This document shows positions 1,115-60,354 of a stretch of 64,000 nt of DNA, piece by piece. The stretch is taken from positions 996-64,995 of the forward strand of contig JAPOKC010000002.1 of NCBI GenBank assembly GCA_029977845.1, in the 5' to 3' direction. The first letter of the stretch is position 1; each line of letters starts with the position of its first letter. The notes under the pieces are model-generated. The model worked only from the letters and a program-made list of their open reading frames with translations. It did no database searches and was not told the DNA's origin. A program made the position numbers and the translations under genes. Source of the stretch: Mycobacteriaceae bacterium (GTDB taxonomy: Bacteria > Actinomycetota > Actinomycetes > Mycobacteriales > Mycobacteriaceae).

Positions 1115-1726
1115 CTAGACGGGATTGAACTCGGAGATCAGCCAGCTGTCACCGCTGCGGACCATGGTCACCATCACGCTGCTGGTCGCCAGCGCCGGCT
1201 CCGGGCGTTCCTTGCTGGTGCTGACCTGATTGACGAAGACCAGGACGGTCGCGTTGTCCGGGCGCATCTCCGCGACCGCGGAGCGAACCACCGTCGCCTC
1301 GGTCTTGACACCCTTCTGTTTGGCGGCCGGGTTGACGATCTTGTCGGTGAAGTCGCTGTAGTAAGTCAGAAACGGTCCGGTCAGATGGGACTTGGCGTTG
1401 GCCAGATCCTGATCGATGGTGTCGGGCGCATACGACAGCAGCGCCACCGTCCCCTGCTTCGCGGCTTCGGCCACCCGTGCCTGATGGTCCGCATCGGTCA
1501 ATCGGTCCGGACGGTAGAGGAACCAGAACACGCTGCCGGCCGCGATCACCGAAGCCAGCAGCAGGGCCGCCAACGTCACGGCGAGTCGGCGTTGAGCGCA
1601 CCAGGCCAGCACCCGTCCGATAGCACCGGTCCCGGCGGCGACCACGGGTGTTTCGGAGGAGAGTTCTTCCACGGCTTCGGAATCAACCGTCAATTCCGCG
1701 GGATCGATCTCGTCATTTTCGGTCAT
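1115..1726 (-). CDS. Mce-associated membrane protein (Mam family)
   Basis: Acidic N-terminus, single TM, then VALLSY...AKSHLTGPF...VLVFVNQ...WLISEFNPV typical of Mam proteins. Confidence 0.85.
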   Translation of the reverse strand: MTENDEIDPAELTVDSEAVEELSSETPVVAAGTGAIGRVLAWCAQRRLAVTLAALLLASVIAAGSVFWFLYRPDRLTDADHQARVAEAAKQGTVALLSYAPDTIDQDLANAKSHLTGPFLTYYSDFTDKIVNPAAKQKGVKTEATVVRSAVAEMRPDNATVLVFVNQVSTSKERPEPALATSSVMVTMVRSGDSWLISEFNPV

Positions 1727-2415
1727 GGTACGAACTCCACATTCGACATCTTGAGTTGCCCGCCATCCGGGCTAACCGTCACGCTCATCCGGAAGGGACG
1801 CGGATCCTGGCGCGCACCGTTGGCATTCGTCACCTGGGACACCACCGCGAGCAGGACCACCGCGGAATCGCCGTTGACCGAATCGACAGCGGCTCCGCTG
1901 ACCGAACCCTTCGTCACCGCCTTGGACTGCTCGGCGGTCTTCACGAAATCCTCGGCCCCTTTGACGAAGTCCTCCCTGAATCCTCCGGTCGAGAGGTCCA
2001 GGACATGTTGAACATCGTCCTTGGCCCGGCTGTGATCGATCGACAGCAGTGCCACCACACCGTTGCGCGCCGCGTCGATGAAGGCCTGCCGATGCGCACG
2101 CTCGGCGGCTGCCTGCCGGTGCGCGACCACCATCCAACCGGTGAGCGCAACGCTGCCCGTCGTCAGCACCGCGGCACCCACCACCCCGATTCGCTTCCAC
2201 GGCAATCTGGACGGCAATCCCGACCACCGACGTCGAGCGGGCTCGGCAACCGCGGCAGGCTCCACGGATTCGTCGTCAGCACCCGCGTCCTCACCGCGCA
2301 AACGGGCTGCTTCCGCCCTGGCCCGTGCAGCCTCGGCGAGGGCCTCGGCCTCGGCAGCCTCGGCCTCGGCCAACTCGGTCAGCACCTCGGACGTGCCGTT
2401 CACCTCTGGATCCAT
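1723..2415 (-). CDS. Mce-associated membrane protein (Mam family)
   Basis: Ala/Glu coiled coil AEAEAAEAEALAEAARARA, one TM, LDLSTGGFREDF, C-terminal LKMSNVEFVP; start re-chosen at ATG 2415. Confidence 0.85.
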   Translation of the reverse strand: MDPEVNGTSEVLTELAEAEAAEAEALAEAARARAEAARLRGEDAGADDESVEPAAVAEPARRRWSGLPSRLPWKRIGVVGAAVLTTGSVALTGWMVVAHRQAAAERAHRQAFIDAARNGVVALLSIDHSRAKDDVQHVLDLSTGGFREDFVKGAEDFVKTAEQSKAVTKGSVSGAAVDSVNGDSAVVLLAVVSQVTNANGARQDPRPFRMSVTVSPDGGQLKMSNVEFVP

Positions 2416-2434
2416 CGCCGCCAGCGTACGCACC

Positions 2435-3880
2435 TCACTGCAGCTCACCTTTCATGACCTTGCCGGTGGCGTTCAGCGGCAGTCCGTCCCTGAATTCGAC
2501 GATGCGGGGAACCTTGTAGCCGGCCATCCGGTCTCGGCTCCAGGAGATGAGGTCCTCCGCGCTGATCCGCTGACCATCGCGGCACACCACGAACGCCTTG
2601 CCGACCTGGCCCAGCCGATCGTCGGGCACGCCGATCACGGCGGCCTGGGCCACGGCCGGGTGTTCCATCAGGAAGTCCTCGATCTCGGCCGGGTACGCGT
2701 TGAAGCCGCCGACGATGAACATGTCCTTCTTGCGACCGTTGATCTTCAGCCGTCCCGACTCCGTCAGCACACCCATGTCTCCGGTGTGCAGCCAGCCGTC
2801 GGGGTCGATGGCTTCGGCGGTGGCGGCCGGGTCGTCGAAGTAGCCCTGCATCACGCTGTAACCGCGCACCAGCACCTCGCCGTCCTCAGCGATGCGCACC
2901 TCGACATCGGCCACCGGCAGTCCGGCGGTGGTGGCGATGTCCTCGAACGAGTCACCCTGACGTGACATCGTCGCCGTACCCGCCTCGGTCAACCCGTAGC
3001 CGGTCGCCAACGTTGTGAACGGGAGCTCCTCGTAGACCCGGCGGACGAGTTCGACGGGGATGTCCGCAGCGCCGGTCACACCGGCGCGCAACGTGGCCAG
3101 CTTGCTCTTGTCGGTGACCGCGAGCAGCGAGTGGTACAGCGTCGGCGGACCGGGGAGCATCGTGATCTGTTCTGCGGCAATGAGATCCACGACACGGTCG
3201 ATGTCGAATACCGCAACCGGCAGCATGGTCGCGCCGCGGATGAAGGAGGCGATACAACCCGCCTTGTAGCCGAAGGTGTGGAAGAACGGGTTGATGATCA
3301 GGTAGCGATCACGCGGACGAAGATCAGCGAGGTCGCACCACTCGGCGTACATCCGCAGATTCTGCAGATGGTTCATCATGACGCCCTTGGGACGGCCGGT
3401 CGTACCCGAGGTGTAGATGATGTCGGCGATATCGGAGCCCTCGACCTGCCGATGCAAGGGCGTCCCGGCCTCGAGAAATCCGGACTTCAGATCGATCGCC
3501 GGTACACCCGGTGGGCTCGGGTAGTCCTGACCGAGGAAACCCTTCTCGACGAGGAGGACCTTGGCGCCACTGCGGGTGATGATGTCGGCCGCCTCGCCGG
3601 CTTTGTACCGGGTGCTGACCGGGACCACGATCCCACCGGCGGTCAGCGTCCCGAACGCGGCGATCATCCACTGCGCCGAGTTCGGCGCCCAGATGGCGAC
3701 CCGGTTACCCTTCTGCACACCCAGTTCCGCCAGTGCCCCCGCGGCCCGGCGAACCCGGTCGGCGACGTCGGTGAACGTCAGGCGCAACGGACCGTCGACG
3801 ACGGCCTCCGCGTCACCGAACCGGTCCGCCGCGCTCAGGACCATCTCCGGGATGGTCTGCCAGGGAACGGCTTGGGTCAC
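2435..3880 (-). CDS. FadD3-like acyl-CoA ligase
   Basis: YTSGTTGRPKG, INPFFHTFGYKAG (FadD3-like), GYGLTEAG, WLHTGD; likely GTG start at 3880 overlapping the upstream stop. Confidence 0.85.
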   Translation of the reverse strand: MTQAVPWQTIPEMVLSAADRFGDAEAVVDGPLRLTFTDVADRVRRAAGALAELGVQKGNRVAIWAPNSAQWMIAAFGTLTAGGIVVPVSTRYKAGEAADIITRSGAKVLLVEKGFLGQDYPSPPGVPAIDLKSGFLEAGTPLHRQVEGSDIADIIYTSGTTGRPKGVMMNHLQNLRMYAEWCDLADLRPRDRYLIINPFFHTFGYKAGCIASFIRGATMLPVAVFDIDRVVDLIAAEQITMLPGPPTLYHSLLAVTDKSKLATLRAGVTGAADIPVELVRRVYEELPFTTLATGYGLTEAGTATMSRQGDSFEDIATTAGLPVADVEVRIAEDGEVLVRGYSVMQGYFDDPAATAEAIDPDGWLHTGDMGVLTESGRLKINGRKKDMFIVGGFNAYPAEIEDFLMEHPAVAQAAVIGVPDDRLGQVGKAFVVCRDGQRISAEDLISWSRDRMAGYKVPRIVEFRDGLPLNATGKVMKGELQ

Positions 3881-5067
3881 ACCCCGACGAGCCGGGCCAG
3901 GTTGCCGCCCATGATCTTGGCCTGATCCGAAACGGGCAGGTGCTCGAGAGCCTTGGCGTAGTAGGTCGGCTCGGCCAACCCCTCCGGGTGCGGCCAGTCC
4001 GAGCCGTAGAGCACGTTGTCCACGCCGATCAGATTGACCAGATCGTCGATGCCCTCCTCGTAGAACGGGCTTACGGCGATCCGGCTCCGGACCATCTCGA
4101 CAGGGTCGCTCGGGAACGCTTCGGGCGCCTTCTTGTACACCTCGGCCAGACCGTCGAGCAACGGGAACATCCACTTCGCGCCGGCCTCGACGATCGCGAT
4201 CTTGACCGTCGGGAAACGATAGAGCAGGCCGTGGATCACGCAGGACGCCACCGCATCCTGAATCGGCCGCCACTCGTTGAGGATCGACATGGCGTTGGTC
4301 TGGAACGGCAGCATCTCCTGGGCAGCGCCGTCCCACTCCGAGGTGTAGCGCGAGTAACCGCTATCGCTGGAGTGCATTCCGACCAGAAGGTCGTACTCGA
4401 CGACCTTCTGCCAGAACGGGTCGAACTCCGGCAGCGCAAACGACCTCGGGCCACGGAAACCGGGCACCGGTGCCGGGCGGATCAGGATGCAGCGGGCACC
4501 GCGCTTGACCGCCCACTCCAACTCCTCCACCGCCTTCTCGACGATCGGCAGCGTGATCACCGGGGTGGTGTAGATGCGGTTCTCGTAGTTGAAACCCCAG
4601 ACGTCGGCGAGCCACTCGTTGAGGGCGTGGATGATGACGTGGATGGCGACCGGATCGTCACGCAGACGCTCCTCGACCACGCTGGCCATCGTCGGGAACA
4701 TCAGCGTCCGGTCCAGGCCGAGTTCGTTCATCACTTCGAGGCGCGGGCCGGGCTCGAAGAACGCCGGGATGGACCGCATCGGCTCACCGAACAGTTCGCG
4801 CTTGGTCTTGCCCTCCGGGTTGCCGTACTTGAAGTACTCCTCCCAGGCGCCGGGCTTGGCCACCACCTCGAAGGTGGCGTTGGGGATGTAGTTGCTGATC
4901 TGACCCCGCAGCGCAATCTTGGTCCGGCCATTGACCTGCACGTACTGGACGAGGTCCTTGTACTCCTTGGGCAGGTACTTGGTCATCGCCTCCGGCGGCT
5001 CGTACAGGTGGTTATCGGCGTCGAAGATCGAGAACGGCAGGTCGATCCGGTGTGACAGCTGGCCCAT
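3877..5067 (-). CDS. Amidohydrolase_2-fold protein; candidate PtmU3-type dinuclear oxygenase
   Basis: DADNH, GMHS, IVEAG, GSDWPHPEG; ATG at 5067 preceded by GAGGAGGA RBS. Confidence 0.85.
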   Translation of the reverse strand: MGQLSHRIDLPFSIFDADNHLYEPPEAMTKYLPKEYKDLVQYVQVNGRTKIALRGQISNYIPNATFEVVAKPGAWEEYFKYGNPEGKTKRELFGEPMRSIPAFFEPGPRLEVMNELGLDRTLMFPTMASVVEERLRDDPVAIHVIIHALNEWLADVWGFNYENRIYTTPVITLPIVEKAVEELEWAVKRGARCILIRPAPVPGFRGPRSFALPEFDPFWQKVVEYDLLVGMHSSDSGYSRYTSEWDGAAQEMLPFQTNAMSILNEWRPIQDAVASCVIHGLLYRFPTVKIAIVEAGAKWMFPLLDGLAEVYKKAPEAFPSDPVEMVRSRIAVSPFYEEGIDDLVNLIGVDNVLYGSDWPHPEGLAEPTYYAKALEHLPVSDQAKIMGGNLARLVGV

Positions 5068-5089
5068 GAAATCCTCCTCAAAGCTACGC

Positions 5090-5104
5090 GAGAATGTTAT
5101 TCTC
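5090..5104. promoter_or_regulatory. Palindromic operator GAGAAT-N3-ATTCTC (perfect copy)
   Basis: GAGAATGTTATTCTC about 23 bp upstream of the amidohydrolase start; motif recurs at many intergenic regions. Confidence 0.75.
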
Positions 5105-5127
5105 ATTATGGACTAATCGCAATACCC

Positions 5128-7527
5128 TCAACCCGGAGCTGTGCCGATGACCCCCTCGGCGGCCAGTTCGGAGATCTCGGCCTCGCTCAGGCCCAACCCG
5201 GTGAGGACCTCGTGGTTGTGTTGCCCGAGCAGGGGGGCATGCGCGCAGTGATAGCGCGTCGGGCCGCCCGCGCACCGGAACGGCAAGGTGCTGTGCCGCA
5301 CCGGATCGTTGACCGGGTGGGCGACGATCTCGAAGAAGCCCCGCGCCGCCAACTGCTCGAGATCGGGCTGGCGGTGCGGTTGCATGACGATGCCCACCGG
5401 CACCCCGGCCGGCCACAGGGTGGACACGATCTCCTCGGCACTGCGACCCGCGCACCAGCGGGCCAGATGTTCATCGATGCGGTCCGCGTGTGCGCGCCGT
5501 CCCGAGGCGGTGGCCAGTGACGCATCGCGGCCCCAGTCCGGATCGCCGAGTGCGGCGCGCAGTGCGGACCACTGTTGGTCGGTGGCCACCGCGATGGCGA
5601 CCCAGCGGTCTTCGCGACCGAACTCGTCGATCCCCGAGCTCCGGTACAGGTTCTGCGGCGCGGACACCGGGCCGCGGTTACCCGACCGCTGCAGCAGAGC
5701 GCCGTAGGCGGAGTATTCGATGACCTGTTCGGCGGCGATGTTGATGGCGGCATCGACCATCGCCGCCTCCACAAGGGCCCCCCGGCCAGTCCGGCGCCGA
5801 TTCGCGAGTGCGATCAGCACGGCGTTGAGCGCGTGCAGTCCGGCGTTGGGATCACCGATGGTGTACGGCTCGTAGGGATTTCGGTCGGGATACCCGGTGA
5901 GCCAGCTGATTCCGGCGGAAGCCTCGATCACATAGGCGAAGGCCGGGTTGTCCCGCCACGGCCCGTCGAGACCGAATCCCGGCATCCGGAGCATGATCAC
6001 ATCGGGCCGGATCCCTTGCACCGCTGCGTAATCCAGGCCGAGTTGGTCGAGGACCCGCGGGGTGAAATTCTCGGCGACCACATCACAGGTGGCGATCAGA
6101 CGCTTGAGCAGCTCACGTCCGCGTTCGCTCTGCAGATCCAGGGTGATGTCCTTCTTGTTGGTGTTCAGCGCCGAGAAGATCGGCTGCTTCTCCCACCACT
6201 GCTCGACGGTGACGGGAACCCCGCCGATCAACCGGGTCCCGTCCGGGCGACGGGTCGACTCGACGTGGATCACCTCCGCACCCAGCAGAGCCATCGGATG
6301 TGTGCAGGACGGCCCGGCCCAGAACGTCGTCAGGTCCAGGACCCGGACACCTTCCAGCGGTAGCCGGCCGGCAGCGACGCCGGTCGGCATTCGCGGATTC
6401 GGGGTTGCCGTCCGGTACTCCCCGGTGTGCTCGCCCATCCTCGGCGCCGGACCGGCGGGACGCAGCGTCACCCCGGAGATGCGGTAGGGATGGCCCGGTT
6501 GACGGAACCCGGCCGGATTGGCGACGAAGGATCCGCGGTCACGGAAATGATCCAGCGATTCGATGGTCGCCCCGTTGGACACCGGGGCGTTGGGGATGCG
6601 GAATGCGGTCGCCAGTTCCCGGACCTCATCGGCGGGGCGTTGGGCGATCCATGCGTACAGTTCGCCGGCCTTCTCGTTGGCCTGCTGGGTGATCGACAAC
6701 GCCGAACCCTCGTCGATCCAGTCCTCGTGCCCGGTCATCGCACAGAGGTCGAACCACTGCTGGGCGGTGCCGCAACCGATGTCGACCAAGCCGTCGGCGG
6801 CCGATGCGATCCCCGGCACGGTGAGCTTGCGGGCGTCCCGCCACGGCCGGCCGAGCATTTCGAAGTACGTCACCGGGAAATAGGTGAGTCCCATGACATG
6901 GCACTCGAGCATGGAGAGGTCGATCAACTCACCTGCGCCGCAATGTGATCGGCGCATCCATGCGGCCAGCGTGGCGGCACTGGCGTAGCCACCCGACAGA
7001 TAGTCACCGACCTGACCTCCGACATACACCGGAGCGCGGTCCGGGGCGCCACGGCCCAGTCCGACGATTCCGCCGGACCACGCCTGCAGGGTGAACTCGG
7101 TGGCCGCGCGATCACTCCACGGTCCCTCGAGCCCGAACGCGGTGATCGCGGTGATCACGAGGTGGGGGTGGCGCTCGCGCATCATCGCCGGAGAGAACCG
7201 GTCCAGTGCCGCGACGGGCGAGTCCGGCGTCCAGATGACCGCATCGGCGGATCCCAACAGTCGCTCGACGAGGTCGAGATCGGCCTCGCATGCCGGGTCG
7301 GCGAGCACGCTCGCCTTGCCGCCGGCCAGAAACGTGAACAGCGCACCGTCTTCATCGGGGGGGATCACCGCCCCCGACGCAGACCATCGGCGCAGCGGAT
7401 CACCCTGGGGCGCTTCCACTTTGATGATCTCAGCGCCGGCGTCCCCCAGAAGTTTCGTGCAGTATCCACCGGGGATTCCGGTCGAGAGATCGACGACGGT
7501 GAAGTCGATCAGTGGCGGTTCGGCCAC
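5128..7527 (-). CDS. Two-domain type III (CaiB/BaiF) CoA transferase
   Basis: 799 aa with two CaiB repeats (GAEIIKVEAPQGDPLR; PLEGVRVLDLTTFWAGP...GAEVIHVE), each ending APxxGxH. Confidence 0.9.
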   Translation of the reverse strand: MAEPPLIDFTVVDLSTGIPGGYCTKLLGDAGAEIIKVEAPQGDPLRRWSASGAVIPPDEDGALFTFLAGGKASVLADPACEADLDLVERLLGSADAVIWTPDSPVAALDRFSPAMMRERHPHLVITAITAFGLEGPWSDRAATEFTLQAWSGGIVGLGRGAPDRAPVYVGGQVGDYLSGGYASAATLAAWMRRSHCGAGELIDLSMLECHVMGLTYFPVTYFEMLGRPWRDARKLTVPGIASAADGLVDIGCGTAQQWFDLCAMTGHEDWIDEGSALSITQQANEKAGELYAWIAQRPADEVRELATAFRIPNAPVSNGATIESLDHFRDRGSFVANPAGFRQPGHPYRISGVTLRPAGPAPRMGEHTGEYRTATPNPRMPTGVAAGRLPLEGVRVLDLTTFWAGPSCTHPMALLGAEVIHVESTRRPDGTRLIGGVPVTVEQWWEKQPIFSALNTNKKDITLDLQSERGRELLKRLIATCDVVAENFTPRVLDQLGLDYAAVQGIRPDVIMLRMPGFGLDGPWRDNPAFAYVIEASAGISWLTGYPDRNPYEPYTIGDPNAGLHALNAVLIALANRRRTGRGALVEAAMVDAAINIAAEQVIEYSAYGALLQRSGNRGPVSAPQNLYRSSGIDEFGREDRWVAIAVATDQQWSALRAALGDPDWGRDASLATASGRRAHADRIDEHLARWCAGRSAEEIVSTLWPAGVPVGIVMQPHRQPDLEQLAARGFFEIVAHPVNDPVRHSTLPFRCAGGPTRYHCAHAPLLGQHNHEVLTGLGLSEAEISELAAEGVIGTAPG

Positions 7528-10848: not shown

Positions 10849-12009
10849 CTACAGGCCCAGGAACTTCTTGGCATTCGTGCTGCAGATCTTCACCGCGTCC
10901 ACCTGGCCGACCGCGTCGACGACCGACCTCAGCGAGCGCTGCGAGTAACCGAAGGTGCTCTCGTTGTGCGGGTAGTCCGACGACCACATGACATTGTCGA
11001 CACCGATCTCGTCGAGCAGTCTCAGGCCGAGCGGATCGACCATGAACGATGCCGTCATGTGGTTGTTCCAGTAGTAGCGGATGTCGTGCTCGACTTCGCG
11101 GTTGAACATGTGCTGGTAGGAGGCGAGCAGATGTTCGGCATCCTGCAGGGCCGTGGCGACCCATGCGATACCGCCCTCGAACCAGCCGATCTTGAGCGTC
11201 GGGTGGCGATCGAGGATGCCGGTGAAGAGGTACTTCGAGAACGTCTCCCGGAATCCGTCGACATTGATCATCATGCCGACCACGACACTGTTGTTCTCGC
11301 ACGGCGTCTTCGGCGGAGTCTCACCGATGTGGTGGCTGACCGGCAGTCCGGCTTCCTCGATCTCGTCCCACACGGCGTCCATCGCTGCGCTGCCGTAGTC
11401 GATGATCGCGTCGTCGTCGCCCTTTCCGGGATTGAGCGGCATGAGGAACGTCTTGAGCCCCAATGACTTCACCTCGGCGAGCGTGCGCCGCGCTCCGGCG
11501 GGATCCCACCAGTTGATCAGACCGACACCGTAAAAATGGCCGTTGCTGCGTTCCTGGATCTCGGCGATGTATTCGTTGTAGATCCGGAACACCTGCTCGC
11601 GCAGTTGACGATCGGGGTAGTGGAACAGCGCCAGCACGGCGTTCGGGAAGGCCAGTTCCTTGTCGACGCCGTCCTGGTGAAGTTCGGCGATCCGGGCCTC
11701 GATGTTCGTGGTGGCCGCGCCGGCGAGATCGTCGTACTGCATCAGCACCCGGCTGAAGTCCAGCGGCAGGAAGGTCTGCCCCTTACCCTTCCCCACCATG
11801 TACGCCCCGTCTTCGTACCAGATCCGGGGTGCCTTCTCCTTGAACTCGGGCGGGAACTTCTCGTAGAAGATGTCCTCCGACAACGAGATGTGGTTGTCGG
11901 CCGAGAACACCTCGGTTCCCGCCGGGAGGCCGTTGGCCTCGTTGACATTGGCGTGGCGGTCCTTCGGAGCGCCGAAGCCGCCTCGGGGATAGACGATGGC
12001 CGTGGACAT
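10849..12009 (-). CDS. Amidohydrolase_2-fold protein; candidate dinuclear oxygenase or hydrolase
   Basis: SADNH, SHHIGE, WFEGG, SSDYPHNES. Confidence 0.85.
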   Translation of the reverse strand: MSTAIVYPRGGFGAPKDRHANVNEANGLPAGTEVFSADNHISLSEDIFYEKFPPEFKEKAPRIWYEDGAYMVGKGKGQTFLPLDFSRVLMQYDDLAGAATTNIEARIAELHQDGVDKELAFPNAVLALFHYPDRQLREQVFRIYNEYIAEIQERSNGHFYGVGLINWWDPAGARRTLAEVKSLGLKTFLMPLNPGKGDDDAIIDYGSAAMDAVWDEIEEAGLPVSHHIGETPPKTPCENNSVVVGMMINVDGFRETFSKYLFTGILDRHPTLKIGWFEGGIAWVATALQDAEHLLASYQHMFNREVEHDIRYYWNNHMTASFMVDPLGLRLLDEIGVDNVMWSSDYPHNESTFGYSQRSLRSVVDAVGQVDAVKICSTNAKKFLGL

Positions 12010-13269: not shown

Positions 13270-13464
13270 TCACTCCTCGATCGTGATCGCTAGTGCGGGG
13301 CACGCGGCTGCGGCGGCCCGGACCCGGGCCTCCTGATCGTCCGGTGGCTCGTCGGTCAGCAGGACGACGACGCCGTCCTCGTCGCGCTGGTCGAACACCG
13401 CCGCGGCATTGCGGACGCACTGCCCGGAGGAGACGCAGGCGGCCTGATCGACGACGACTTTCAT
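13270..13464 (-). CDS. [3Fe-4S]-type ferredoxin (CxxSxxC...CP)
   Basis: MKVVVDQAACVSSGQC...ACPALAI; ATG at 13464 overlaps the TetR stop. Confidence 0.9.
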   Translation of the reverse strand: MKVVVDQAACVSSGQCVRNAAAVFDQRDEDGVVVLLTDEPPDDQEARVRAAAAACPALAITIEE

Positions 13465-14126
13465 ATCCCGTCCACCTCCTCGGTGACCGGCGCCAACCAC
13501 AGCCCGATGATCGCGTCGATCAGACCCGACGATGCCGAACCCCAGGTCAGGTTCGGCGAGCGCGTGCGGTCGGCGATGGCACGCTCGTAATGGGCGCAGG
13601 TGTGGATCAGCAGGTTGCGGCCCATGACGTTGCGCTCGGCCCGGACGCGGGTCGGCAGATCTGGCAGACACCGGCTGATGCCCTCGAGAACCGTGACCAG
13701 GGCCGGCAGGGCCAAAGCCCCGGAAGTGATGGTCTGGTAGTAGGCCGGATCGGCCATGACCTGAGCGGCGAAACGGGCGTACCAGGTCGGATTGCCCAGC
13801 GCGGTCAGGTGATCGGTCAACGGAAGGACCAGGGCGCCGACCCAGTCCCGCAACTCCTCCGAATCCCCCATCTCGGCCAGTCGTTGTGCGCGCAGTCGCT
13901 CCACCGGGACGGCGTGCTTGTGCTCGATGGCCCGGACGAGGTCGGTCTTGGTTCCGAAGTGGTACCCGACGGCGGCGTTGTTGCCCTGCCCGGCGGCCTC
14001 GCTGACCTGACGGTTGGACACCGCGTAGACACCGTGTTCGGCGAACAGTCGCTCAGCGGCCGCGAGGATCGCCTCGCGGGTGAGACTGGCCCGGTCGGCC
14101 CGGGTGCCGGTGGTCGCAGCGGTCAT
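13461..14126 (-). CDS. TetR family transcriptional regulator
   Basis: TREAILAAAERLFAEHG...RQVSEAAGQGNNAAVGYHFGTKTDL HTH. Confidence 0.92.
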   Translation of the reverse strand: MTAATTGTRADRASLTREAILAAAERLFAEHGVYAVSNRQVSEAAGQGNNAAVGYHFGTKTDLVRAIEHKHAVPVERLRAQRLAEMGDSEELRDWVGALVLPLTDHLTALGNPTWYARFAAQVMADPAYYQTITSGALALPALVTVLEGISRCLPDLPTRVRAERNVMGRNLLIHTCAHYERAIADRTRSPNLTWGSASSGLIDAIIGLWLAPVTEEVDGI

Positions 14127-14154
14127 CAAGGCCAGTCAACCCCCGACCATTCTT

Positions 14155-34178: not shown

Positions 34179-34193
34179 GAGAATAGCATTCTC
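34179..34193. promoter_or_regulatory. Palindromic operator GAGAAT-N3-ATTCTC (perfect copy)
   Basis: GAGAATAGCATTCTC about 24 bp upstream of the phosphotransferase start. Confidence 0.75.
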
Positions 34194-35801: not shown

Positions 35802-36518
35802 ATGGTGGACCTGGAGCGCAGTGGCGGCCTGGCCGTCATCACCATCGACCGGCCCCACGCCCGCAACGCCATCGCGATGTCGACGATGGGCGAACTCGAG
35901 GAGGCCCTCGACGCCGCGGCGGGCGCTCAGGCACTGGTCATCCGTGGCGGCGGCGATCGCGCCTTCGTCTCCGGCGGAGATCTCAAGGAGTTGGCCGCAC
36001 TGCGCACCATCGAGGAGGCCTCGGGGATGGCCCGGCGGATGAGGACCGTCTGCGACAGGATCGCGGACTTTCCGGCGCCGGTGGTGGCCGCGCTCAACGG
36101 TCACGCCCTGGGCGGAGGTGCCGAAGTCGCGGTGGCCGCCGATATCCGGATCGCCGCCGACGACATCAAGATCGGGTTCAATCAGGTCTCACTGGAGATC
36201 ATGCCGGCCTGGGGCGGGGCCGAACGGCTCGGCGCGCTGGTCGGCCGGGGCCGGGCACTGATGCTCGCCGGTTCCGGTACCATCCTCGGGGCCGCCGACG
36301 CGCAACGACTGGGGCTGATCGACCGGGTGGTCCCCCGCGCCGCGTTCGACGAGGAGTGGCGAGCGCTGGCGGAGGCCTTGGCGAACCGCCCGGCAGGGCG
36401 AATCAAGCAGGTGCTCGCCGGCGCGACCCCCGACCAGGCGGTGGCAGCCTTCGCCGATCTCTGGGTCTCCGATGAGCACTGGCAGGCCGCCGACCGGGTG
36501 ATGAACAAAGGTAAGTAG
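35802..36518 (+). CDS. Enoyl-CoA hydratase/isomerase family protein
   Basis: ITIDRPHARNA, AFVSGGDLK, LNGHALGGGAEVA, MPAWGG. Confidence 0.9.
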   Translation: MVDLERSGGLAVITIDRPHARNAIAMSTMGELEEALDAAAGAQALVIRGGGDRAFVSGGDLKELAALRTIEEASGMARRMRTVCDRIADFPAPVVAALNGHALGGGAEVAVAADIRIAADDIKIGFNQVSLEIMPAWGGAERLGALVGRGRALMLAGSGTILGAADAQRLGLIDRVVPRAAFDEEWRALAEALANRPAGRIKQVLAGATPDQAVAAFADLWVSDEHWQAADRVMNKGK

Positions 36519-36579
36519 AACCGTGGCGAACATCCCCCAAACCGTGGTTTCGACAGCAGGCGGCGTGCAAAACTGGCTC

Positions 36580-37005
36580 ATGGACTTCGTCCGGATGACA
36601 TCTGCGTTCGCCCTGGCTGTGAGCGCGACGACCCTCGCCACGGCAGTCGGCGCGGTGCCCGCTCATGCCGAAGGCCCGGTGATGCATCAGGTCACCTACA
36701 GCGTGTTCACCGAACGTCCGTTCAAGGCCGACATCTACTACCGGGACGCCGAACCCGCCATCTGGTCGGACTACAGCCACAACCCGTATCAGTTCAGTCC
36801 CAAGATCGAGGTTCAGGTCGGCCCCGACAACCCGTGGGTGCTCAATGTGCAACTCGCCAATCCCAACGAATGGGCGATGGTGATCGGCACCAGCGGACTG
36901 TCCCCCAATCCGCCGTACTTTCATTGCGTGCTGGCCATCGACGGGGTCGTGGTCAAGACGAACGGCGGCACCAAAGGCGCACTGTGCTCCGTGCGCATGT
37001 GGTGA
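36580..37005 (+). CDS. Secreted hypothetical protein with MmpS-like C-terminal Cys pair
   Basis: Signal peptide ending PAHA-EG; HCVLAIDGVVV...ALC resembles the MmpS Ig-like domain; start uncertain (36523-36595). Confidence 0.65.
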   Translation: MDFVRMTSAFALAVSATTLATAVGAVPAHAEGPVMHQVTYSVFTERPFKADIYYRDAEPAIWSDYSHNPYQFSPKIEVQVGPDNPWVLNVQLANPNEWAMVIGTSGLSPNPPYFHCVLAIDGVVVKTNGGTKGALCSVRMW

Positions 37006-37018
37006 CGCCTGAAGACTC

Positions 37019-38296
37019 ATGACCGATTTTGCAACCGTCGACTTCCTCACCGACCAGTCACTGGTTCCCGACCCGTATCCGTACTACGACTATCTGCGCG
37101 CGCGAAACCCCGTAGTGCTGGTCCCGCCGCACAACTTCGTCGCGGTCACCGGTTACGACGAGGCGATGGCGGTCTACAAGAACATCGACGACTTCTCCTC
37201 CTGCGTGGCGTTGGGCGGACCGTTCCCCCCACTGCCGTTCACGCCGGAGGGTGACGATCTCAATGCCGCGATCGATGCGCACCGCGAACAGTTCCCGATG
37301 TTCGAGCACATGGTCACCATGGATCCGCCCGAACACACCAAGGCCCGTTCACTGCTGAGCCGGCTGCTGACGCCGAAGCGGCTCAAGGAGAACGAGGACT
37401 TCATGTGGCGGCTCGCCGACCGCCAGCTCGACGAGTTCATCCATCAGGGCAGGTGCGAGTTCCTCGCCGAATACGCGAAACCCTTCTCGCTGTTGGTGAT
37501 CGCCGATCTTCTCGGGGTTCCCGAGGAGGACCATCAGGAGTTCCGCGTCGTCCTGGGCGCCGAACGTCCCGGCGCCCGGGTCGGTGCACTCGACCACGAG
37601 TCGGTCGGCAGGAATCCGCTGGAGTTCCTCGACGAGAAGTTCAGCGGTTACCTCAAGGACCGGCGCAGCAATCCGCGTGATGACGTGCTGACCGACCTGG
37701 CGACGGCGAAGTACCCCGACGGCTCCACACCGGAGATCATCGAGGTGGTGCGCACCGCGACCTTCCTGTTCGCCGCCGGGCAGGAGACCACGGCCAAACT
37801 GCTGTCCGGAGCGATCAAGGTTCTCGGTGAGCGGCAGGATGTGCAACAGGCGTTGCGCACCGACCGCAGTCTGATTCCGACCTTCGTCGAGGAGTCGCTG
37901 CGGCTGGAGAGTCCGGTGAAGAGTGACTCCCGCCTGGTCCGCAGATCTACCCGGATCGGTGATGTGGATCTGCCGGCCGGAACCATCGTGATGGTGCTGC
38001 CGGGCGCGGTGAACCGTGATCCGCGCCGTTTCACCGATCCGAATGAATTCGACTTGCACAGAGGCAATGTGCGCGAGCACATCGCGTTCGGCCGCGGCGC
38101 CCACTCATGCCCCGGCGCGCCGCTGGCAAGGGTGGAGGGCCGGGTGTCTCTGGAGCGCATCCTCGATCGGATGGGCGATATCCGCATCGACGAGGAATTC
38201 CACGGACCGGCCGCACAGCGTCGCTACAACTGGGAGCCGACCTACATCCTGCGCGGGCTCGCCGACGTGCACATCACGTTCACCCCGAAGGACTGA
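37019..38296 (+). CDS. Cytochrome P450 (CYP150-like)
   Basis: FLFAAGQETT, EESLR, heme motif FGRGAHSCPG, PTYILRGL. Confidence 0.93.
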   Translation: MTDFATVDFLTDQSLVPDPYPYYDYLRARNPVVLVPPHNFVAVTGYDEAMAVYKNIDDFSSCVALGGPFPPLPFTPEGDDLNAAIDAHREQFPMFEHMVTMDPPEHTKARSLLSRLLTPKRLKENEDFMWRLADRQLDEFIHQGRCEFLAEYAKPFSLLVIADLLGVPEEDHQEFRVVLGAERPGARVGALDHESVGRNPLEFLDEKFSGYLKDRRSNPRDDVLTDLATAKYPDGSTPEIIEVVRTATFLFAAGQETTAKLLSGAIKVLGERQDVQQALRTDRSLIPTFVEESLRLESPVKSDSRLVRRSTRIGDVDLPAGTIVMVLPGAVNRDPRRFTDPNEFDLHRGNVREHIAFGRGAHSCPGAPLARVEGRVSLERILDRMGDIRIDEEFHGPAAQRRYNWEPTYILRGLADVHITFTPKD

Positions 38297-58028: not shown

Positions 58029-58068
58029 GGTAACCACGTTCTACTATGACGAGGAGAACGTAATTCTT
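58029..58068. promoter_or_regulatory. Two operator copies upstream of the amidohydrolase-Rieske operon
   Basis: GGTAACCACGTTCTA (58029), GAGAACGTAATTCTT (58054). Confidence 0.6.
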
Positions 58069-58087
58069 GCTGCTGAAGGCGGGTGCG

Positions 58088-59179
58088 GTGATCGAACACC
58101 GGGACGGAACGACGACTCCGCTGATTGACGCCAGCGTGCATATTTTCTTCGGCTCGACTCCGGAGTTGCGCGCCGTGATGCGGGAGCCGTTCAAGAGCCG
58201 CGGATTCCCGGACTACGAGATGGACTGGTACGGCGCCCCGGGCGGCGAGTACGCCAAGGGCACCCGTGGCCCCGACGGCCAGTACCCGGGATCCGATCCG
58301 GATCTGGTGGCACGCCACCTGTTCACCGACCGCGGAGTCGATGTCGCAGTGCTGCACCCGATGGGCCGCGGCATCATGCCCGACCGGCATCTGGGCACCG
58401 CGATCCTGTCCGCGCACAACGAGATGATGGTGTCGCGGTGGCTGGAGCATCCCGAATTCGGTGACAGATTCCGGGGCACCATCCGGGTCAACCCCGATGA
58501 CATCAGCGGCGCGCTGCGCGAGATCGAGAAGTACAAGAACCATCCGCGCGTCGTTCAGATCGGGATACCGCTGCAGTCGCGCGAACTGTATGGCAAGCCC
58601 CAGTTCTGGGACCTCTGGGAGGCGGCGGCCGCGGCCGGACTACCGGTGGCCACCCACATCGAACCCGGGGAGGGCATCGGGTTCAGTCCGACCCCAAGCG
58701 GTAACACCCGGACCTACGAGCAATACCTTGGTTTCATGTCGCTGAACTACGTCTACCACCTGCTGAACATGATCGCCGAGGGTGTGTTCGAGCGGTTCTC
58801 CGACCTCAGGGTCGTCTGGGCGGACGGTGCCGCTGACATGGTGACCCCGTTCATCTGGCGGATGGACTGCTTCGGCCGGCCGCATCTGGAGCAGACACCG
58901 TGGGCGCCGCGAATGCCCAGTGACTATCTTCCCGGTCACGTGTACTTCATCCACAACAGCCTGGACGGACCCGGCGACGCCGACTACGCCGACCAGTGGC
59001 TGTCGTTCACCGGCAAGGACGACATGCTGATGTTCGGTTCGAGTTATCCGTACTGGCATCTCTACGACGCACACGATCTGCCACCGGCGTGGACGGCCGA
59101 GCAGCGCGACAAAGTCTGCTGGCGTAACGCCGCCGGGCTTTATGGCATAGACATACCGGCCGGCGTGACCGCACAGTAG
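58088..59179 (+). CDS. Amidohydrolase_2-fold protein with degenerate metal site (putative structural subunit)
   Basis: DASVH, ATHIE, WADGAAD, GSSYPYW in place of DxDxH / E / SDYPH; start 58067 (TTG) or 58088 (GTG). Confidence 0.82.
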   Translation: MIEHRDGTTTPLIDASVHIFFGSTPELRAVMREPFKSRGFPDYEMDWYGAPGGEYAKGTRGPDGQYPGSDPDLVARHLFTDRGVDVAVLHPMGRGIMPDRHLGTAILSAHNEMMVSRWLEHPEFGDRFRGTIRVNPDDISGALREIEKYKNHPRVVQIGIPLQSRELYGKPQFWDLWEAAAAAGLPVATHIEPGEGIGFSPTPSGNTRTYEQYLGFMSLNYVYHLLNMIAEGVFERFSDLRVVWADGAADMVTPFIWRMDCFGRPHLEQTPWAPRMPSDYLPGHVYFIHNSLDGPGDADYADQWLSFTGKDDMLMFGSSYPYWHLYDAHDLPPAWTAEQRDKVCWRNAAGLYGIDIPAGVTAQ

Positions 59180-59199
59180 GAACGAACGAGGAGACCACC

Positions 59200-60354
59200 A
59201 TGACGCTGAGCCATATTCAGGAACGCGTTACTCCTGCCGAGCGTGTTCCGGTGCGCTGCGTCGATTCCGATGTCCACCCGGTGCCCCGGCGTGGAGTGAT
59301 GCAGCAGTACATCCCGGAGCCGATTCGCAGCAAGTACTTCACTAACCACTCAGTCGGCGAGACCATCTACTACGACGCTCCGGATTACGCGCACGCCTAT
59401 GCGATGCGGGTGGACACCTTCCCGCCCGACGGGGAGTTCGCCTGCACCGATCCGGACATGGCGTTTCGCCAAGCGATCATGGAGGCCGGCGCCGATATCG
59501 CGATACTCGAGCCCGTGTTCGCGACCTGCCGGTTGCCGGAGGCCACCGTGGCGCTGGCCGCCGCGCACAACAGCTGGCAGGACGAGCACTGGCTGGACAG
59601 CAAGAACAACTGGCACGGCCGCTGGCGCGGATCGATCTGCGTGGCCATCGAAGACCCTGCGGCAGCGGTCCTCGAGATCGAGAAGTGGGCCGGCCACCCC
59701 AGCATGTCGCAGATCCTGATCAGGGCGGAGCCCAGACCCTCCTGGGGGGACCCCGTCTACGACCCGGTCTGGGCGGCGGCCACCAAACACGACATCACAG
59801 TCAGCTGCCACCTCGGGCGAGGGCACAGCGAACTGCTGCCCCTACCGCCGGTGGGCTTTCCCAGCTACAACCACGACATGATGGTCAGCTACTCGCTTCT
59901 GGCCAACAACCAGGTGATGAGCCTGATCTTCGACGGCGTCTTCGATCGATTCCCCACCCTGCGTGTGGTTTTCGTCGAACACGCATTCAACTGGATCCTG
60001 CCGCTGATGTGGCGGATGGATGCGATCTACGAAGCGCGCAAGTCGTGGATGGACATCAAGCGCAAGCCCAGCGAGTACGTCAAGGAACACATCAAGTTCA
60101 CCACGCAGCCACTGGACTACCCCGAGGACAAGACCGAGTTGCTGCGCGCCTTCGAGTGGATGGAGTGCGAGAAGATCCTGCTGTTCTCCTCGGACTATCC
60201 GCACTGGACCTACGACGATCCCCGCTGGCTGGTCAAGCACCTACCCGAGCATGCACGGGAAGCGGTGATGTTCCGCAACGGCATCGAGACCTACAAACTG
60301 CCCGACACCGTTCCGGCTCTCGAGGGCCAGACCCGGGTGTTCGACGTTCGATGA
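59200..60354 (+). CDS. Amidohydrolase_2-fold protein (putative catalytic subunit of a dinuclear monooxygenase)
   Basis: DSDVH, SCHLG, VFVEH, FTTQP, SSDYPHWTYDDP. Confidence 0.85.
   Translation: MTLSHIQERVTPAERVPVRCVDSDVHPVPRRGVMQQYIPEPIRSKYFTNHSVGETIYYDAPDYAHAYAMRVDTFPPDGEFACTDPDMAFRQAIMEAGADIAILEPVFATCRLPEATVALAAAHNSWQDEHWLDSKNNWHGRWRGSICVAIEDPAAAVLEIEKWAGHPSMSQILIRAEPRPSWGDPVYDPVWAAATKHDITVSCHLGRGHSELLPLPPVGFPSYNHDMMVSYSLLANNQVMSLIFDGVFDRFPTLRVVFVEHAFNWILPLMWRMDAIYEARKSWMDIKRKPSEYVKEHIKFTTQPLDYPEDKTELLRAFEWMECEKILLFSSDYPHWTYDDPRWLVKHLPEHAREAVMFRNGIETYKLPDTVPALEGQTRVFDVR

Follow-up and report, generated by a model that had tools for sequence, protein, structure and literature searches.

In a 64,000-nucleotide stretch of a metagenome-assembled mycobacterial genome (Mycobacteriaceae bacterium, assembly GCA_029977845.1, contig JAPOKC010000002.1, positions 996 to 64,995; hereafter the window), the gene for P0001, a protein of a kind elsewhere labelled 'amidohydrolase', overlaps the gene for a FadD3-family acyl-CoA ligase, P0002, and the two form a conserved unit behind a conserved palindromic operator (Table 1). 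We propose that P0001 hydroxylates an alicyclic acid, likely as the CoA thioester supplied by the coupled ligase, within a pathway encoded by the surrounding catabolic island, and we put the probability of this reading, which leans on sequence comparison, at roughly 60%. The family assignment is firmer: P0001 is very probably an amidohydrolase-related dinuclear oxygenase (ARO) and not a hydrolase or decarboxylase. A preliminary description of positions 2435-7527 had placed a PtmU3-like oxygenase candidate there, and its coordinates and gene content hold, every element that it reported being present.

P0001 belongs to PF04909 (amidohydrolase_2; Pfam search, E 9.6e-24). Within this family, AROs are defined by an N-terminal D-x-H on the first strand together with a C-terminal D-x-P-H-x-D/E, expected at least ~200 residues into the protein, a combination reported to be absent from the characterised PF04909 hydrolases and decarboxylases (PMC13154177). 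This motif pair is carried by ~17,000 database 'amidohydrolases' (PMC13154177; PMC10811679). P0001 contains D16-A-D18-N-H20, H232, E294 and S356-D-W-P-H-P-E362, the series of residues that the preliminary description had picked out. Among 43 homologues with 29-86% identity to P0001, residues D16, D18, H20, H232, E294, D357, P359 and H360 are invariant and position 362 is Glu in 41 of them and Asp in the other two; the motif residues are conserved rather than a chance occurrence. D18-N19-H20 falls within a predicted strand (residues 15-21), and D357-W-P-H-P-E362 follows the last strand. In a HMMER alignment, H232 and E294 pair with the His and Glu of PtmU3, and E362 pairs with PtmU3 E313, which PMC7782822 reports as a direct iron ligand, in keeping with the earlier assignment of D-x-x-H-x-E as the second-iron ligand set. 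P0001 thus has every sequence feature of an ARO: the fold, D-x-H, D-x-P-H-x-D/E, the mid-barrel His and the bridging Glu. At the three positions proposed to govern metal preference it has a hydrophilic residue (N19), a hydrophobic one (F124, at the end of the predicted strand 120-125) and a non-aromatic one (P361), a residue pattern listed as 'diiron-dependent' in Table 1 of PMC13154177, which places P0001 by sequence in the high-potential, diiron-dependent ARO subclass. As expected for this subclass, none of the genes annotated within the operon or close to it codes for a small Rieske ferredoxin.

The relatives of P0001 point the same way. Against the Protein Data Bank (PDB), its best matches by sequence are 4DZI (E 1.9e-79), PtmU3 (1.9e-20), DitZ (4.5e-8) and AibH-type chains (~1e-7). 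An AlphaFold2 model built from a 43-sequence alignment (pLDDT 93, pTM 0.92) was compared by Foldseek, and 4DZI (TM 0.92-0.95), PtmU3, DitZ, SfbO, TruffO and an AibH1H2 chain all precede ACMSD and the first decarboxylase. This ranking of PtmU3, DitZ and 4DZI is by E-values and TM-scores rather than by a tree. Because distant AROs and ACMSD obtain similar fold scores, the ARO assignment rests on the motifs and not on the fold. With AROs as the best matches in both sequence and fold and with the ARO motifs complete, P0001 groups with PtmU3- and DitZ-type enzymes, as had been suggested, and the clustering with ACMSD, LigW or LigY that would have spoken against this is not what we observe, the decarboxylases ranking below the AROs.

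The pairing with the ligase is conserved. A scan of one genome per species returned at least 587 relatives of P0001, of which the best 80 were used as orthologous loci; these 80 proteins are 83-95% identical to P0001 and all come from Mycobacteriaceae. A FadD3-like ligase gene lies directly downstream of the oxygenase gene in 79 of the 80 loci. Here the TGA stop codon of the oxygenase overlaps the GTG start codon of the ligase as GTGA, a junction kept in most of the 80 loci, with the ligase frame beginning there in at least 36, and the translational coupling proposed earlier is therefore supported by both the overlap and the adjacency. Together, these observations strongly support a functional link between oxygenase and ligase, although adjacency does not imply an order of reactions. 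The oxygenase had also been described as lying between a CoA ligase and a CoA transferase. The ligase half of that description is general, whereas a transferase is a neighbour in only 7 of the 80 loci: the fused CoA-transferase, the enoyl-CoA hydratase and the pair of M24 genes found upstream here are present in those 7 only, and we reject the CoA-transferase as a partner and regard it as a lineage-specific neighbour. Literature searches returned nothing on the oxygenase-ligase gene pair.

P0002 scores 759.7 bits against NF005801 ('FadD3 family acyl-CoA ligase'), above the equivalog cut-off of 657, and its M. kansasii orthologue scores 775.1 bits. The genome holds two FadD3-family genes above the cut-off, P0002 and a copy on another contig (C71:12885-14396; 826.9 bits), the products of which are 45% identical. 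The second copy sits between two acyl-CoA dehydrogenase genes, an arrangement that we take to be the canonical fadE30-fadD3-fadE31 of the steroid ring C/D regulon, and the source organism probably also degrades steroids. We considered whether P0002 is the HIP-CoA ligase encoded in the KstR2 regulon (steroid rings C/D) and rejected this, given the better-scoring second copy and a different operator. Steroid pathways are stated to converge on a single FadD3 (PMC9546629), so the existence of another copy with its own regulation points to substrates of another family, and the family membership of P0002 suggests a bulky alicyclic acid as its substrate.

The oxygenase-ligase pair has its own regulated candidate promoter, read from conserved sequence directly after the stop codon of the CoA-transferase gene. 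The 60-nt gap between that stop and the P0001 ATG contains a perfect copy of the palindrome GAGAATnnnATTCTC. In all 80 orthologous loci the palindrome is found at -37 relative to the start codon, perfect in 76 and with one mismatch in 4, and the preliminary description was right to credit the oxygenase with a perfect operator copy of its own. In every one of the 81 sequences (the 80 loci and the window), a hexamer beginning with TTG lies 16-18 nt upstream of TAnnnT, which itself forms the middle of the palindrome; here TTGCGA and TAACAT are 17 nt apart. A protein on the palindrome would thus cover the -10 element. A scan for consensus promoters made no call upstream of P0001, where the site agrees at 8 of 12 positions by hand count and the scan needs 9, so that the promoter rests on its conservation. 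AGGAG is likewise kept in the orthologous leaders.

The distribution of the palindrome ties the unit to a larger set of genes. The window (G+C 66%) has 8 sites with no more than two mismatches where 1.1 are expected. In the 2.79-Mb genome, which is 73% complete, the perfect palindrome occurs five times, each time on contig C76 (130.6 kb), the contig that carries the window. Relatives have 3-9 perfect copies per genome, and a reversed control pattern gives none. The second perfect copy in the window indicates that the regulon to which the oxygenase-ligase unit belongs spans the island. Sites with no more than two mismatches precede other C76 operons between ~6 and 95 kb, including a module of ligase, kinase, short-chain dehydrogenase/reductase (SDR) and acyl-CoA dehydrogenase genes, acyl-CoA dehydrogenase pairs, a thiolase and further PF04909 genes, and one such site stands before the aldehyde dehydrogenase and CoA-transferase genes that head what, from gene sizes and order, is a putative mce operon. 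Among candidate regulators, a TetR gene in the window (13461-14135) was rejected as the conserved one, with no counterpart near the 80 orthologous loci. A 198-residue TetR of the M. kansasii type lies near the unit in 57 of the 80 loci and, in all five relatives tested (G002, G011, G013, G017, G024), within the island; no orthologue was found in the source genome, 73% complete as it is, though the five perfect operator copies remain there.

Table 1. Features of the oxygenase-ligase locus and of related elements. Positions are those of the window unless preceded by C76; a dot marks a palindrome given without strand.
Feature	Position	Strand	Basis
P0001, ARO-type candidate diiron oxygenase, 396 aa, labelled 'amidohydrolase' elsewhere	3877-5067	-	PF04909, ligand set
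P0002, FadD3-family acyl-CoA ligase paralogue, 481 aa	2435-3880	-	NF005801
P0003, fused two-domain family III CoA-transferase, 799 aa, upstream neighbour	5128-7527	-	two CoA_transf_3 stretches
Perfect palindromic operator GAGAATnnnATTCTC	5090-5104	.	palindrome count and conservation
Candidate -10 hexamer TAACAT, centre of the palindrome	5099-5094	-	conservation
Candidate -35 hexamer TTGCGA, directly after the CoA-transferase stop codon	5122-5117	-	conservation
Shine-Dalgarno sequence GAGGAGG, 5 nt before the P0001 ATG	5073-5079	-	direct reading
First family-less protein 3' of the ligase	1723-2448	-	without Pfam or NCBIfam match
Second family-less protein 3' of the ligase	1115-1726	-	weak Rv0361-family C-terminal match, E 0.0026
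Second perfect operator copy in the window, before an APH-like kinase gene	34179-34193	.	palindrome count
Second protein in the window with the full ARO motifs	10849-12009	-	D-N-H, D-Y-P-H-N-E; PtmU3 1.3e-23, DitZ 7e-23
DitZ orthologue, 441 aa	C76:76731-78056, outside the window	-	D-D-H, D-Y-P-H-S-D; 8UYR E 7e-111, full length

The nearest relatives of the source genome are Mycobacterium and Mycolicibacterium, and the island marked by operator copies extends over ~95 kb. It contains a putative Mce importer, P450s, ring-cleavage genes, beta-oxidation genes and an orthologue of DitZ. Overall, the P450s encoded on C76 number at least six, alongside several CoA ligases and CoA-transferases of family III, two KstD-like flavoproteins, a LigB-type extradiol dioxygenase with a flavin hydroxylase, two hydrolases of the meta-cleavage-product type and a luciferase-like monooxygenase, together with SDRs, acyl-CoA dehydrogenase pairs, thiolases and a DUF35/thiolase-like fusion. 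Three C76 proteins carry the full ARO motifs, namely P0001, a second protein encoded in the window and the DitZ orthologue. The gene of the DitZ orthologue has a perfect operator upstream (C76:78185), adjoins a CMD-family gene and a gene for the alpha subunit of an aromatic-ring-hydroxylating dioxygenase, and lies 72 kb from the P0001 gene in the same operator-controlled island. Furthermore, of 24 congeneric genomes the same four lack both the orthologue of P0001 and the DitZ-like one, and in at least 10 related genomes the two lie 48-100 kb apart on one contig. Since DitZ is described as a diterpenoid hydroxylase, a diterpenoid or related polycyclic isoprenoid acid is our best guess for the island substrate, a guess drawn from gene content and weakened by the context of the unit in M. 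kansasii.

The second protein in the window with the full ARO motifs is nearer to PtmU3 and DitZ than to 4DZI, and its gene heads a block with two M24/creatinase-like genes. Two further PF04909 genes (58064-59179 and 59128-60354, both on the plus strand) stand behind operator-like sites. One of the two lacks the C-terminal ARO motif and the other has D-V-H and D-Y-P-H-W-T, a variant in which Thr replaces the Asp or Glu and is preceded by an aromatic residue, and which the published motif filter would miss.

The usual neighbourhood of the unit was counted over the 80 loci with the M. kansasii locus as reference. On the upstream side, divergent neighbours are an enoyl-CoA hydratase (65/80), a Rv2576c-like protein (55/80), the 198-residue TetR counted above and a P450 (53/80). 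Downstream are two family-less proteins (~40-47/80), a 210-residue protein, also family-less (54/80), and a co-oriented gene for a 61-residue Bfd-type [2Fe-2S] ferredoxin (53/80), the four Cys of which (C-x-C...C-x2-C) are invariant. Homologues of the Bfd ferredoxin and of the 210-residue protein were not found in the source genome (73% complete); judging from the closest relatives, both genes would probably lie beyond the contig start, as C76 ends ~1 kb before the window. The 210-residue protein is highly conserved and matches no Pfam family; ABM-like clusters are among its nearest in the atlas (M. kansasii, L081:14536-15366, with Bfd). The first family-less protein of Table 1 matches a 300-residue gene product encoded after the M. 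kansasii ligase and has a homologue 3' of the ligase in 41 of the 80 loci; the second matches a 199-residue M. kansasii protein and has a homologue in 44. Both had earlier been read as putative Mce-associated membrane (Mam) proteins.

In M. kansasii and other mycobacteria, the P450 that adjoins the oxygenase-ligase unit matches CYP150A6 (6DCD; E 6e-216), which we take to be an M. marinum enzyme and for which we know of no physiological substrate. In the source genome, the hydratase, Rv2576c-like and CYP150A6-type genes lie together at 35802-38296 on the plus strand, ~30 kb from the oxygenase, and the intervening ~30 kb hold further catabolic genes. The CoA-transferase, oxygenase and ligase genes are co-oriented. 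The M. kansasii flank (L081:15368-20830) encodes an indolepyruvate-decarboxylase-like enzyme of the thiamine pyrophosphate-dependent type, SRPBCC proteins, a family III CoA-transferase and an aminotransferase. This flank may resemble M. tuberculosis Rv0853c-Rv0858c, which fadD16 (Rv0852) adjoins; the ligase would then correspond to FadD16, and the oxygenase would have been lost in M. tuberculosis, a likeness on which we do not rely.

In the mechanism that we envisage, an alicyclic acid would be produced in the island pathway or imported by its putative Mce system and would be converted by the FadD3-type ligase, translated from a shared mRNA with P0001, into a CoA thioester. P0001 would form a TIM barrel in which D18 and H20 on strand 1, together with H232 and E294, hold metal 1, while D357, H360 and E362, in the loop after strand 8, hold metal 2. 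As a diiron oxygenase it would hydroxylate an unactivated C-H bond of a carboxylic acid derived from a terpenoid or steroid, using O2 and two electrons, the latter probably delivered by a Bfd-type ferredoxin such as that seen in relatives. With the new hydroxyl group in place, degradation would continue through the island's hydratase, dehydrogenase and thiolase-type enzymes. At the level of transcription, a repressor bound at GAGAATnnnATTCTC would block RNA polymerase at the promoter, which appears to be of the sigma-A type. The order of ligase and then hydroxylase is only an analogy with PtmU3, and the retro-aldol reaction or ring fragmentation that the preliminary description envisaged after hydroxylation is speculation.

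Several observations weigh against hydroxylation of a CoA ester by P0001. The nearest relative with biochemical data, 4DZI (Q73XC0), has cofactor spectroscopy only. The fold ranking barely separates AROs from ACMSD, both falling between E 1e-15 and 1e-20. The visible operon has no gene for a ferredoxin or reductase, and the Bfd homologue is missing from the 73%-complete genome. Some species, M. kansasii among them, have the core unit with no ring-cleavage genes within 10 kb, so its substrate need not be a product of ring cleavage. Moreover, hydroxylation is not the only reaction of AROs, BarH-like enzymes for instance carrying out oxidative decarboxylation (PMC13154177), and the same paper describes DitZ with a free acid, so that ligase and oxygenase may act in either order.

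This last point bears on what we regard as the best-surviving alternative, unlikely as it is, namely that the ARO acts first, on the free carboxylic acid, as proposed for DitZ with dehydroabietic acid, and that its hydroxylated product is what the ligase activates. In DitZ samples, dehydroabietic acid was supplied in its free form (PMC13154177), a DitZ orthologue is present in the island, and the oxygenase gene precedes that of the ligase in the operon. P0001 is, however, nearer by sequence to PtmU3, which takes CoA-linked substrates, than to DitZ; the tight coupling to a ligase, kept in 79 of the 80 loci, is compatible with either order.

We consider it improbable that P0001 belongs with the non-redox PF04909 enzymes (ACMSD, LigW, LigY, LigJ or LigI type), with the activity of a decarboxylase, C-C hydrolase, hydratase or lactonase towards some product of ring cleavage in the island. 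The Pfam family is indeed shared, ACMSD and dihydroxybenzoate decarboxylases occur among the Foldseek matches (TM ~0.65), and the island has meta-cleavage genes. However, P0001 carries D-x-H together with D-x-P-H-x-E, reported to be absent from the characterised hydrolases and decarboxylases of the fold (PMC13154177), the second-metal residues H360 and E362 are conserved, and in the PDB sequence search the match to ACMSD is restricted to residues 272-395 at E 1.5e-5, all better matches being AROs. Equally small is the chance that P0001 is an ARO carrying out another oxidation of the ligase product (oxidative decarboxylation, desaturation or oxidative C-C cleavage), for although BarH, LynB7 and DolJ-type AROs perform oxidative decarboxylation and the superfamily is functionally diverse and mostly uncharacterised (PMC13154177), PtmU3 and DitZ, the nearest characterised relatives, are hydroxylases, and the sequence features of P0001 do not separate the outcomes.

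Hydroxylation of a ligase-made CoA ester by P0001 can be extended into a more specific picture, which we offer tentatively and consider somewhat unlikely as a whole. The unit, with the Bfd ferredoxin and the 210-residue protein, may catalyse a previously undescribed, O2-dependent step that unblocks beta-oxidation at a hindered or quaternary carbon of a bicyclic acid, the remnant of a diterpenoid or other polycyclic isoprenoid after ring cleavage, and the ~95-kb island may be a widespread mycobacterial regulon for terpenoids or resin acids under a repressor that reads GAGAATnnnATTCTC. If so, that bicyclic intermediate would be to terpenoid degradation what HIP is to the breakdown of steroids, and the regulon would comprise the Mce importer, the CYP150A6-type and other P450s, the DitZ orthologue and the ring-hydroxylating and extradiol dioxygenases.

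AROs were recognised between 2019 and 2026. To our knowledge, a reaction has been established for only a handful of the ~17,000 'amidohydrolase'-labelled ARO sequences, and we know of no substrate for the 4DZI-like branch. The assignment of a protein to the ARO family is itself no longer surprising; the conserved ligase-oxygenase-ferredoxin unit is an entry point to an uncharacterised mycobacterial pathway. The locus gives the 4DZI-like branch a testable setting, with a FadD3-family ligase as obligate partner, a likely ferredoxin donor in relatives and a fixed promoter and operator, to which the conserved, putatively Mce-linked island with its DitZ orthologue adds. Discovery of the substrate would name the oxygenase, the ligase, the P450 and probably the Mce importer at once and would correct a systematic misannotation as 'amidohydrolase'.

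The KstR operator (TnnAACnnGTTnnA), which governs the cholesterol regulon of mycobacteria, is an AT-rich palindrome with AGAAY-type half-sites. Like it, GAGAATnnnATTCTC is AT-rich, has AGAAY-type half-sites and stands before many lipid-catabolic operons, including a putative mce operon, but its half-site is different (GAGAAT) and its spacer is an odd 3 nt. Similarly, P0002 passes the family cut-off of FadD3, the HIP-CoA ligase of steroid ring C/D degradation, but is a second, separately controlled paralogue.

Among the enzymes that share the PF04909 family and the TIM barrel with P0001, ACMSD, LigW and gamma-resorcylate decarboxylase are mononuclear or metal-free and lack the set of D-x-H plus D-x-P-H-x-D/E. 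DitZ (Rhodococcus rhodochrous, 8UYR; also Pseudomonas), described as a diiron diterpenoid hydroxylase, resembles the P0001 locus in ARO fold and motifs, in its catabolic setting and in the diterpenoid class of substrate proposed here. In sequence, however, the two are distant (E 4.5e-8, 19% identity): in DitZ the middle residue of the first motif is Asp, a Glu stands two positions ahead of the C-terminal motif and the last ligand is Asp, where P0001 has N19, G355 and E362.

PtmU3 (Streptomyces platensis; 6OMP/6OMQ) has the same fold and the same seven ligand positions as P0001, with Glu at the last. It is described as the diiron hydroxylase of platensimycin and platencin biosynthesis that takes CoA-linked diterpenoids; for P0001, a CoA-linked substrate would be implied, by analogy, by the ligase. 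PtmU3 differs in being shorter (356 residues; 22% identity, TM 0.71-0.79), in lacking the extra N-terminal elements of P0001 (roughly residues 25-100) and in its biosynthetic setting, the P0001 locus being catabolic.

The closest solved relative of P0001 is MAP2389c (M. avium subsp. paratuberculosis; 4DZI; UniProt Q73XC0), also from Mycobacterium, which is 36% identical and shares the D-N-H, H, E and D-W-P-H-x-E residues. It is a paralogue and not an orthologue, given that true orthologues are 83-95% identical. Related genomes (G002-G024) each hold 2-6 paralogues of P0001 with 42-69% identity, the 4DZI-like ARO branch having expanded strongly in the genus. By spectroscopy, Q73XC0 has been placed among the diiron-type, high-potential AROs, in a sequence similarity network cluster of its own and with no known reaction (PMC13154177). 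The proposed likeness to PtmU3 thus stands in part, in the common ARO kinship and in the correspondence of E362 with Glu313, but the closest solved relative is a different protein. In kinship, P0001 is closest to MAP2389c; in its working, with Glu as the last ligand and a ligase as partner, it would by analogy be most like PtmU3.

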